Source: a virus
Lineage: Duplodnaviria > Caudoviricetes
DNA: 64,000 bases
Direction: 5' to 3' (one strand)
IMG/VR virus record: IMGVR_UViG_3300033074_001499
Location: 20,315-84,314 of that record
In this document: one piece after another, positions 28,418-57,198 of the stretch
Numbering within the stretch: position 1 is the first letter of the stretch
Layout of the letters: each line of letters starts with the position of its first letter
Made by a program: the position numbers and the translations under genes
The notes under the pieces: generated by a model
Databases searched by the model: none
What the model was told of the DNA's origin: nothing
What the model saw: the letters and a program-made list of their open reading frames with translations, nothing else

Positions 28418-28492
28418 GGGCCTATAGCTTAAAGTAAAGCAGCCTGGCTCATAACCGGGAGGACTTAGGAGCGTTACCTATTGGGCCCACCA
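28418..28492 (+). tRNA. tRNA(CAU): Ile2 favoured over Met; atypical T-loop
   Basis: GGGCCTA/TGGGCCC-A-CCA; CCTGG-CTCATAA-CCGGG; C4:G69 and C5:G68 as in TilS substrates; T-loop AGCGTTA. Confidence 0.8.
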
Positions 28493-36019: not shown

Positions 36020-36113
36020 GAGGTTGTAGCTTAATTTAAAAGCAGCGAGGAACACAGAGGCTTCATAAAAGCCAATGCATCCGTCAATGCAGGTGCAAAT
36101 CCTGCCGACCTCA
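36020..36113 (+). ncRNA. tRNA-like RNA with enlarged central domain, no CCA
   Basis: Acceptor GAGGTTG/CGACCTC, D-stem GCTT/AAGC, T-arm GCAGG-TGCAAAT-CCTGC. Confidence 0.7.
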
Positions 36114-40972: not shown

Positions 40973-41144
40973 CCATTAATGCTTTTGCACAACGTTGATT
41001 CCAGATAGCAGGATGTGGTGGACGATCTGTGAATTCCTGATCTGGATCAACAAAACCAAGACTTTGTTCAAGCATAACAAGCATCATGTGTGTGCGATCG
41101 AGGCCTTCATGTTGAAACCACTTATCAATCTTTTCTTGAGTCAT
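40911..41144 (-). CDS. Hypothetical protein
   Basis: AAGGAGAAGA RBS; HEGLDR...ELYQAIG. Confidence 0.75.
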   Translation of the reverse strand: MTQEKIDKWFQHEGLDRTHMMLVMLEQSLGFVDPDQEFTDRPPHPAIWNQRCAKALMDATSALCELYQAIGEWEEDD

Positions 41145-54553: not shown

Positions 54554-54836
54554 GTCAGTATATTGCAAACACCAGTCGAAAGAAAGGGGTGTTTCTGACA
54601 GCGAGTAAGATCGTATAAAAGCCTTTCAAGTAGAGTAATCTTACCAAACCTCTACCCGCCACAAGCTGTACCTACCAGACTTGTGTGAATCTTCTTGTCT
54701 CAATCGGAATGGCCTTTTGGTTTTTGTAGGTTGATGAGGTTGGAGATTCAGGATAAGACCGAATCCTTCGTCTTAGGCACAATTCTGTGTATGGCGAGGG
54801 CTTAGGAGTAATCTATCCTGAATTTCTGAACTCATC
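54554..54836 (+). ncRNA. Candidate pseudoknotted structured RNA
   Basis: Nested stems, GNRA loop, two 6-bp loop-distal pairings, 13-bp stem with G-U pairs favouring + strand. Confidence 0.6.
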
Positions 54837-54874: not shown

Positions 54875-55420
54875 ATGAAATTTAAAGAGTACATGGAAAA
54901 CAGAGGTAACAATGGAATTTCTATTTTCGAATGTAAAGTGTTCGGTATAGAGAAGAGTAAAGGTTGGAAAGAGAGATATGCTGATCTAGAAATTACACAA
55001 AGTCAAATTAACAAAATAGTAACTTTTATGGATAAAAAGATCACAGCAAGTCCAAAAGTAAAAGGCAATATACGTTCTCTTCAAAAAAGAGAATACGTTG
55101 AGTGGGAAGGTAAATACTTATATCTGATGAAAAATGAAATTGGTAGGTTGAAAATTGGAATAAGTGAAGACCCGATTAAAAGATCAAGAGATATTACAAA
55201 TGCTGGTGGCATTTTAACTCAGTGTATTGCTTATTGGAAAGTCTCTAAATTAACCAAGGATGTAGAATCTTTCTTGCTTAAAAAATGGTATGAACATAAA
55301 ACTTATGGTGAATGGTTTGTATCAAATGCTTTCTCTATAAAAGACATAGAGTCGTCAATGCCTTGTGATTTTGAGAGATTGTTCTATAACGAAGAATGGG
55401 ATTGTTCCGTTTTTTACTAG
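54875..55420 (+). CDS. GIY-YIG (T5orf172-like) nuclease-domain protein
   Basis: YLYLM...LKIGISEDP.KR...E...GEWF. Confidence 0.8.
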   Translation: MKFKEYMENRGNNGISIFECKVFGIEKSKGWKERYADLEITQSQINKIVTFMDKKITASPKVKGNIRSLQKREYVEWEGKYLYLMKNEIGRLKIGISEDPIKRSRDITNAGGILTQCIAYWKVSKLTKDVESFLLKKWYEHKTYGEWFVSNAFSIKDIESSMPCDFERLFYNEEWDCSVFY

Positions 55421-55525: not shown

Positions 55526-55735
55526 ATGAAATGTTTAGCTTGTGACTGCTTCCTTAGAGAATCAGAATTGAATATGAAAAAAGAAGATGGTAGTTTTGAA
55601 GATATGTGTACGGATTGTCGTAGAATTTCATACGGATATGAGTACATGGAAATCAAAGAATATCAATTCCAACATCTAACAGAGATGATCCAAAACTACT
55701 TTTATATGAAAAATATTCAATCAGAATACGATTAA
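55526..55735 (+). CDS. Small zinc-finger protein
   Basis: MKCLACD...DMCTDC. Confidence 0.75.
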   Translation: MKCLACDCFLRESELNMKKEDGSFEDMCTDCRRISYGYEYMEIKEYQFQHLTEMIQNYFYMKNIQSEYD

Positions 55736-55737
55736 AC

Positions 55738-55767
55738 TTGACAAATACTAATAATATAGTATATACT
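55738..55767 (+). promoter_or_regulatory. Sigma70 promoter
   Basis: TTGACA-N18-TATACT. Confidence 0.7.
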
Positions 55768-55773
55768 ATAGCT

Positions 55774-55877
55774 TATATAGTGAATAAAAATATTTCTCCT
55801 AAATCACATGTCTTCTCCTTCATGTGATCCTCCAATAACCCTTGGTTATTTCTCCTAGCCAGGGGTTATTTCTTTTT
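55774..55877 (+). ncRNA. Candidate anti-Shine-Dalgarno sRNA
   Basis: Two hairpins with UCUCCU loops, last followed by a U-rich tail; own promoter. Confidence 0.7.
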
Positions 55878-55895
55878 CTAAGAAGGATTGTCAAT

Positions 55896-56276
55896 ATGGC
55901 ATTCGATCATAGTAGTCATGCTAAGAAGATTGGCATGAAAAAAGGTGAAACCAGAAATCCAAATGGTTCTCCTACAAAAGTGCGTATCACTAAAAGTCCT
56001 CTTCGTAAAACTGCTGAATCACTCCGTGAAGTGGAAGAGGATGCTCTTAAAGCTATCAAGCTTGCTGTGAAAGGTCAAGAGGTTGATAAGACACAGCTTG
56101 AAACAGCTAAGTGGTTGATTGGCATGATTCAAACAATAGATAAATCTGCTTCTCAAGAAGAAGTAGCAGCAGCTAAGATTCGACTAGAAGCTAAAAAAGC
56201 ACAAGAGAATGGTGCTGGTGTTGAAGACGTACACCAAGCGGATATAGTTGAATTTACTTTAGATATTGTCCAATAA
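55896..56276 (+). CDS. Putative terminase small subunit
   Basis: GMKKGETRNPNG motif typical of TerS; upstream of terL; start 55896. Confidence 0.65.
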   Translation: MAFDHSSHAKKIGMKKGETRNPNGSPTKVRITKSPLRKTAESLREVEEDALKAIKLAVKGQEVDKTQLETAKWLIGMIQTIDKSASQEEVAAAKIRLEAKKAQENGAGVEDVHQADIVEFTLDIVQ

Positions 56277-56560: not shown

Positions 56561-56635
56561 CTTTTATAGCAAATTACTCTTTGTAGGGTTTGTTGCATGT
56601 CCCTGTTGCGACATTGAGTAATTTGACTATAGGAG
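56561..56635 (+). promoter_or_regulatory. RBS-sequestering hairpin upstream of HNH gene
   Basis: 19-bp stem 56561-56579/56616-56635 includes AGGAG. Confidence 0.75.
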
Positions 56636-56646
56636 TTTTAAATTTT

Positions 56647-57198
56647 ATGCAAAAAGAAATCTGGAAAGATGTTGTTGGTTACGAAGAATACTTCATGGTG
56701 AGTAGCACAGGTAGGGTTTGGTCTAAGAGAACTGAAAAATTGTTAGCTCCTACACAGTTAAAAAGTGGCTATCTTGTTATAAATTCTAAGATAGGTGGTA
56801 GAAATGGCAAAGCTGTTTCTCTAAGAATTCATAGATTGGTTGCAGAGGCTTTTTTATCTGAGCCAGAAAAATCAATAAGTCAAGCTTGTTCAGAAACCCT
56901 CTACGGTAAAGTTCCTGTTAACCACAAAGACGGGGACAAAAAGAATAATTGTGTAGAAAATTTAGAATGGTGCACTTATTCTTATAATACTCGCCATGCT
57001 ATACAAAACGGCTTTCTTGTACACAAGAAGGGTTTTGAAAACAGTTTATCCAAACTGACAGAAGAACAGGTTTTGGAAATAAAAAGTTGTTATGTAGCCA
57101 ATCATAAAATTTTTGGCACCAGAGCTTTAGCAAAGAAATACAATGTGCATCACACGACAATAAGTAGAATTGTCAGAAACAATGCTCCGCGTTCATAG
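56647..57198 (+). CDS. NUMOD4-HNH homing endonuclease
   Basis: EIWKDVVGYE..FMVSSTGRV (NUMOD4); HRLVAEAF...VNHKDGDKKNN..NLEW; start 56647. Confidence 0.9.
   Translation: MQKEIWKDVVGYEEYFMVSSTGRVWSKRTEKLLAPTQLKSGYLVINSKIGGRNGKAVSLRIHRLVAEAFLSEPEKSISQACSETLYGKVPVNHKDGDKKNNCVENLEWCTYSYNTRHAIQNGFLVHKKGFENSLSKLTEEQVLEIKSCYVANHKIFGTRALAKKYNVHHTTISRIVRNNAPRS

Follow-up and report, generated by a model that had tools for sequence, protein, structure and literature searches.

A conserved, uncatalogued phage RNA with anti-Shine-Dalgarno loops that probably acts as a translational switch from early to late genes

The Listeria sRNA LhrC and the enterobacterial CyaR carry unpaired C/U-rich seeds that pair with Shine-Dalgarno (SD) sites. 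Seeds of this type are also found in RNAIII of S. aureus (PMC4615179). The cuckoo, CcsR (RSs0680) and alpha-r14 sRNAs of Alphaproteobacteria consist of two to four hairpins side by side, whose stems vary and whose loops are anti-SD, and have been proposed to act by occlusion of ribosome binding sites (RBSs) (PMC4615179). In phage T4, the endoribonuclease RegB inactivates early mRNAs via the GGAG of their SD sequences, which eases the transition from early to late expression (PMC9409239). The passages considered of a 2025 review of phage sRNAs describe the c4 antisense RNA of P1 and P7, whose loops pair near an RBS and block translation, and contain no anti-SD RNA of the kind presented here (PMC12197685). 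A literature search for phage anti-SD RNAs, conducted mostly outside the subscription literature, found no paper.

The RNA element described below lies in a stretch of 64 kb (the window), which represents the final part of a virus record of 84,314 nt with 37 % GC. The large terminase of this phage is 42–46 % identical to those of Pseudomonas myoviruses (Otagovirus, Pakpunavirus and their kin) and of Acinetobacter phage B9, and the hosts of the cultured relatives are Gammaproteobacteria. The locus is found at the head of a rightward late block, between an ORF of 69 aa (55526–55735, + strand), which contains two CxxC pairs, carries a C-terminal motif of the EYQ/HE type and is the usual upstream neighbour of the RNA, and a terS-like ORF of 126 aa (55896–56276, + strand). 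The latter is the first late gene and, judging by its position and N-terminal motif, probably encodes the small subunit of terminase; no family match was found for it.

As claimed in an initial annotation, a sigma70-type promoter (TTGACA-18-TATACT, 55738–55767, + strand) precedes a unit of about 100 nt ending in a 12-bp stem and a U-rich tail. The promoter scores 11/12, the highest value among 31 promoter-like sites between 50 and 60 kb, and places the predicted start near 55774; the RNA would be about 105 nt long, with two hairpins, the U-rich tail and four anti-SD (CUCCU/CCUCC) tracts. On the + strand, the first tract (55792–55800) is single-stranded and lies behind an AU-rich stretch that may resemble an RNase E site. 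It is followed by hairpin 1 (55803–55828), in which an 8-bp stem (55803–55810/55821–55828) closes a 10-nt anti-SD loop (55811–55820), by an unpaired CCUCC linker (55829–55833, anti-GGAGG) and by hairpin 2 (55834–55870), whose 12-bp stem (55834–55845/55859–55870) carries another anti-SD loop (55846–55858). The latter stem extends to 15 bp if weak pairs are counted and also serves as the stem of an intrinsic terminator, the hairpin and the U-rich tail (55871–55879) together giving a terminator-like match. In the lowest-energy fold loop 2 comprises 7 nt and its flanks pair weakly. All four tracts of the initial annotation are present where it had placed them and are mostly unpaired, with mean unpaired probabilities, in order, of 0.56, 1.00, 1.00 and 0.85. 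The fold has a z of -6.75 on the + strand (0/200 shuffles) and of -3.29 on the - strand, and the + strand of the unit contains no RBS-led ORF. Nowhere else in the 84-kb genome are three TCTCCT found within 100 nt, and only here do hairpins with anti-SD loops cluster.

With two adjacent hairpins, variable stems and anti-SD loops, this RNA is cuckoo/CcsR-like in architecture but is not a member of that group. Its loops lack the fixed CCUCCUCCC (they show UCUCCU in the window and vary in relatives), it is phage-encoded, it has extra single-stranded seeds, and a loop fits the phage's own non-late RBSs; there is no Rfam or sequence link to cuckoo, CcsR or alpha-r14, and the context is a late leader of a lytic myovirus rather than an alphaproteobacterial chromosome. 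With CyaR and the sRNAs that have C-rich loops (RNAIII, RsaE/RoxS, LhrC) it shares unpaired C/U-rich seeds, here in loops, linker and terminator loop. However, RNAIII, RsaE, LhrC and CyaR are host stress or virulence regulators with UCCC-type seeds, not viral temporal switches, and the window loops are devoid of UCCC, unrelated in sequence to RNAIII, RsaE and LhrC and without Rfam match. The predicted outcome resembles that of RegB, but RegB is a protein nuclease that needs S1, whereas here an RNA is predicted to occlude the site. The c4 RNA, in turn, is an immunity RNA of temperate phages with one target operon, whereas the present RNA belongs to a lytic phage and has predicted targets by the dozen. 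The system can thus be called undescribed, as initially claimed, for this phage family but not for the kind of RNA, since anti-SD loops on tandem hairpins are known from bacteria. Rfam gave no match at the gathering threshold for the RNA in the window, and five homologous loci had none at E 0.5.

Relatives were reached through protein searches with the terS-like protein (53–90 % identity, leading to L003–L020 and L119) and with the small upstream ORF; cultured phages gave no hits when searched by blastn with the region or by tblastn with the terS-like protein, and an exact DNA scan returned one near-identical strain only. Wherever the contig of a close relative extends over the site, the promoter is present at an identical position and is followed by two to four hairpins with CUCCU/CCUCC loops. 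The close set consists of the window and 11 uncultured relatives (L003/4, L005, L007, L008, L009, L011, L015, L016, L017, L020 and L119), whose units fold with z values from -2.9 to -9.1. Conservation concerns the architecture and not the sequence: between subclades the stems are unrelated and cannot be aligned while the anti-SD loops are retained, the opposite of the lost loops and kept stems that the initial annotation had named as speaking against it. In L005, L009, L016, L020 and L038 the first hairpin comes after an unpaired UUUCUCC tract, and several different loop variants coexist within one RNA in L005, L017 and L020. Further copies emerged from the search with the small ORF (L038, L043, L044, L053, L054), and whole-genome scans revealed relocated copies in the tRNA region before terL (G009, G010, G011, G012); beyond the 11 close relatives, about nine further IMG/VR phages carry the unit. 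The number of hairpins in relatives varies from one to four, and in L009 the unit and terS are 2.3 kb apart. Weak one-loop forms occur in G004 and G005, while the whole-genome scan gave a weak candidate only in G006 and no RNA in G007 (L033); no anti-SD unit was found within 330 nt in L034, L036, L037, L042, L046 and L048–L051. The strict hairpin detector missed bulged forms. A copy in a contig of a Bacteroidota MAG was rejected as host evidence and is taken to be a mis-binned phage contig.

In cultured phages, a one-loop form is located between the small ORF and the terS-like gene of phiPsa374-type Otagovirus and KIL phages (Otagovirus/Flaumdravirus type, 50 records), and this form is also present in Kassivere, UAVern and PAK_P3. 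In Pakpunavirus (123 records) the hairpin with this loop is found some 170 nt upstream of terL and is preceded by a second unpaired seed. Most cultured copies have no U tail, and the syntenic site of phAPEC8, JLBYU50, Barba5A and vB_PsaM_M1 showed no such RNA. The initial annotation had called for a covariation analysis in related phages, and among ten cultured copies 92.6 % of the cells are paired and two-sided changes are seen in 12 of 19 pairs, mostly due to the more distant members (0/500 shuffles; slid controls 35–45 %), the loop core being invariant. The element is a real, conserved and uncatalogued phage RNA element. The late, abundant non-coding RNAs sRNA1 and sRNA2 from the pre-terL region of PAK_P3 (PMC4933390; 10.1101/2023.10.13.562163) were considered as the same element and rejected: they have other loci and other sequences, lack anti-SD loops, and the hairpin lies upstream of them. 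In Pakpunavirus (L065:37720–37870, - strand; PaYy-2) the anti-SD hairpin directly follows a tRNA-like element similar to PAK_P3 sRNA2, an RNA known to undergo processing. This suggests that the hairpin is freed by tRNA-type processing.

Variation between close strains bears on the length of the seed. The initial annotation had described loop 2 as an exact 11-nt complement of the RBSs of five genes. These five matches exist, but the claim was over-read, since T55847G in close strains (L002; runs X3/X5) reduces the match to 9 nt; the exact 11-nt match is therefore strain-specific and the working seed is a core of 6–9 nt. Strain X3/X5 has 52 differences in 822 nt, yet among those listed (all but 17) only two lie inside the RNA: T55847G and G55862A, the latter converting a U-G pair of hairpin 2 to U-A.

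Transcription data are available for PAK_P3, in which long-read sequencing assigned start site 84633 (+) to the sigma70 promoter P071, the homologue of the promoter in the window (10.1101/2023.10.13.562163, supplement). This start site is just upstream of an unannotated anti-SD hairpin (84633–84703). Transcripts continue through gp161–162 and no terminator is listed between 84633 and 85458 (10.1101/2023.10.13.562163); the transcript reads through, with the homologous hairpin as its 5' leader. The downstream gene gp161 shows a 6-fold rise (log2 2.6) from 3.5 to 13 min (PMC4933390). The + strand is therefore supported and late enrichment of the RNA is plausible. In the window, the terS-like ORF has no promoter of its own, so that its expression needs read-through of the RNA and the terminator must leak; a short RNA would thus be expected alongside a leader form.

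The RBSs of the phage itself are the next line of evidence. Genes came from a simple codon/RBS caller, the loops were hand-picked, and classes were assigned by layout and homology, late meaning the virion, packaging and lysis block. In this genome, seed matches of 7 nt or longer occur in 2/36 late versus 47/138 non-late RBS regions, and those of 8 nt or longer in 0/36 versus 30/138 (p = 8e-4); the split persists when only genes of at least 100 aa are counted (p = 0.001). Matches to the 16S anti-SD do not differ significantly between late and non-late genes of this genome. GGAGAA and AGGAGA, complements of the window loops, are found in 40 and 35 non-late RBSs versus 1 and 2 late ones. A scan of the phage RBSs by temporal class, as suggested initially, points the same way: RNAup-like net energies, corrected for accessibility by including opening costs, average -3.2 kcal/mol for late and -5.5 kcal/mol for non-late genes (p = 9e-5). 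The top predicted targets are the genes starting at 41144, 3975, 28517, 25931 and 9817. Both RBS matches attributed to loop 1 in the initial annotation, before genes 3975 and 41144, exist, and these starts are the best targets of hairpin 1 (net -14.3 kcal/mol for 41144 and -13.4 kcal/mol for 3975). The initial statement that the visible morphogenesis RBSs do not match these strings needs a correction for the late genes as a whole, since late starts 62039 and 63043 match over 6–7 nt; late RBSs are therefore depleted, not free, of matches.

The bias extends to related genomes, with exceptions. Pooled over eight genomes with clear RNAs, own-loop matches of at least 7 nt were seen in 22 late RBSs versus 72 expected (odds ratio 0.19), as opposed to 36 versus 39 for the 16S anti-SD (odds ratio 0.89); since neither genes nor genomes are independent, pooled p-values are too small. 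In phiPsa374 the classes are split by its own loop (1/38 late versus 33/128) and not by the loops of the window (10/38 versus 34/128). PaYy-2, intended as a negative control, was split by the Otagovirus loop (1/33 late versus 59/136) and later found to carry that loop before terL; both it and G009–G012 are useless as negative controls because the RNA is present elsewhere in the genome. The genome in which no RNA was found, G007, is reversed, strong SDs being preferentially on late genes, with AGGAG in 14/26 late versus 18/120 other RBSs, a figure from a single genome that is 89 % complete. Own loops ranked first among eight loop sets in only 4/8 genomes, and the split is absent from G004 and G005, where the late block is poorly defined, weak in G010 and present in G006 with its weak candidate RNA. 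In this phage (G000) GAGGAG is depleted genome-wide (6 versus 35 expected; 52 versus 56 in G001), which suggests avoidance of a restriction site. Because of this depletion, the covariation of loops and RBSs between G000 and G001 (p = 0.005) is not counted as co-evolution and may reflect avoidance at the DNA level.

The sequence, the fold, the conservation, the covariation, the RBS bias and the + start site of PAK_P3 are the observed basis, from which we infer the synthesis of the RNA in this phage, its pairing, the repression and its timing. On these grounds it is fairly likely that the element is a trans-acting, multivalent RNA that occludes RBSs and dampens early and middle translation. The RNA would be made at the head of the late unit, either as a terminated transcript of about 105 nt or as a leader or processed piece of the late mRNA, and would display several unpaired CU-rich seeds able to pair in trans with SD sites of the AGGAG(A/G) type. 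Pairing would keep 30S subunits from loading onto early and middle phage mRNAs, as well as onto host mRNAs with such sites, and, the virion genes being largely without extended seed matches, ribosomes would move to the late genes, which would be under selection to escape the seeds. A role as temporal switch from early to late translation is thus probable; of the silencing switch put forward in the initial annotation, the non-coding + strand RNA and the non-virion RBS bias are borne out, while the leader form of PAK_P3 departs from it. Points against this explanation are the PAK_P3 transcript map, which lists no terminator that would yield a discrete RNA, the missing U tail of most cultured copies, and the modest binding expected of 6–9-nt seeds in small loops.

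To our knowledge, small RNAs of virulent phages with a known function are few and early-gene turn-off in phages relying on sigma70 is largely open; the RNA offers a specific and testable mechanism for it. Hosts, transcript maps and genetics exist for copies in PAK_P3, Pakpunavirus, phiPsa374 and KIL phages, which makes them directly testable. Whether a widespread group of lytic myoviruses with host sigma70 promoters, including therapeutic PAK_P1-like and PAK_P3-like phages, switches in part by an RNA-only counterpart of RegB, namely a multivalent anti-SD RNA, and by an RBS code in which complements of the seeds are avoided in virion genes is evenly balanced. If true, the choice of RBS would encode the temporal class and aid gene annotation, payload expression in therapeutic phages would have to be designed with it in mind, and a compact tool for class-wide translational silencing would be at hand.

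By the same chemistry, the RNA could instead silence host mRNAs as a generic anti-SD sponge, with late phage genes escaping it and early ones being incidental targets. The loops of most relatives are CCUCCUCC-like and complementary to the universal SD, different variants occur in one RNA (see L005, L017 and L020 above), and avoidance by late genes is also predicted. However, the window loops fit the commonest non-late RBS hexamers of the phage better than the 16S-type core. Moreover, a quick degradation of about 90 % of the host mRNA is reported for PAK_P3 and PAK_P4 (PMC5563952), which leaves less to silence late; we regard a host-directed role as unlikely. Quite unlikely, too, is a decoy of the 16S rRNA 3' end that titrates a host protein, either a defence RNase cleaving the anti-SD or an initiation factor such as S1, and does not pair with mRNAs. 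The loops do resemble the 16S tail and their multivalent display would suit a protein sponge, but such a decoy leaves unexplained why late RBSs avoid loop complements while 16S-tail matches are unbiased, as well as the reversal in G007, and the loops (UCUCCU, CCUCCUCC, CUCUCUCC) vary more than would be expected if they imitated one fixed sequence.

A cis-acting leader, in which the loops sequester the terS-like RBS or tune termination and thereby delay packaging, is suggested by the last hairpin, which in the window, Otagovirus and PAK_P3 lies 10–25 nt before that RBS on the same transcript. Yet the terS-like RBS matches the loops over only 5 nt here, and in the cultured copies the loop is near-invariant while the downstream RBS varies freely. 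In L003, L005, L009, G009–G011 and PaYy-2 the unit lies elsewhere, 150–2300 nt away from terS, in the midst of tRNAs or ahead of terL, and up to five seeds are superfluous for a single site. Like the 16S decoy, a cis leader is disfavoured because it accounts neither for the genome-wide RBS bias nor for the mobility of the unit, and it appears quite unlikely.

CsrA sites are hexaloops, unlike the loops of 10–17 nt in question. This speaks against a minus-strand RNA with GGA loops that would sponge CsrA/RsmA, the alternative raised initially, or a minus-strand mini-ORF. The reverse strand folds as well (z = -3.29) with AGGAG in loops, but the promoter, the U tail, the better fold and the PAK_P3 start site are all on the + strand, G-U pairs favour it, and no good - strand promoter is nearby; the + strand loops show the complement of GGA and not GGA itself, in contrast to sponges of the CsrB/RsmZ type, and a minus-strand product is very improbable. 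AGGAG-type words are frequent in these genomes, but ordinary terminator or processing hairpins with CU-rich loops arising by chance are hardly credible and largely refuted by the conservation pattern, as the cluster is unique in the genome and the loops are kept across unrelated stems in >20 lineages.

The 69-aa ORF has no Pfam or PHROG family match; by tblastn, weak homologues of it were found in 442 records of cultured phages, PAK_P3 gp160 being its syntenic counterpart. It belongs to an unannotated family of small Zn-finger-like ORFs kept here and in PAK_P3 (gp160), Pakpunavirus, Otagovirus, Barbavirus and phAPEC8-like phages, with a variant that has an acidic stretch in place of the CxxC part. 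A tie between the RNA and this ORF was rejected, since they are kilobases apart in G009–G012 and PaYy-2. Flanking ORFs encode a MUG113/GIY-YIG-like protein (54875–55420, weak Pfam match) and an HNH endonuclease (56590–57198). The minus strand of 55773–55823 contains a mini-ORF of 16 codons preceded by GGAGG, as well as an RBS-ATG-TGA start-stop; these are probably by-products of the anti-SD tracts.

Several relatives carry a variable structured insert between the RNA and terS that is not in the window (L003:4785–4935, L007:2805–2968, L005:2833–2915, L008:2830–2970, L015, L016, L020, L119). It has a long closing stem, often TGTGTTTT ... AGAACACA, and sometimes a tRNA-like T-loop. Downstream of the small ORF, G007 (L033), L034 and L037 have a long, structured non-coding region of a different kind. 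Two stretches of the window (28418–28489 and 36020–36113) give tRNA-like Rfam matches (41.4 bits) and are called by ARAGORN in neither case. Finally, a second conserved non-coding stem-loop, without Rfam match, occupies the divergent intergenic region at 54748–54823 (+ coordinates). It is common to PaGz-1, UAVern, phiPsa315 and Pyxpy01, contains invariant CGTCTTAGGCA and TGTATGGCG and shows two-sided changes in 13 of 31 predicted pairs (five sequences), which makes it a candidate for a separate ncRNA on either strand.
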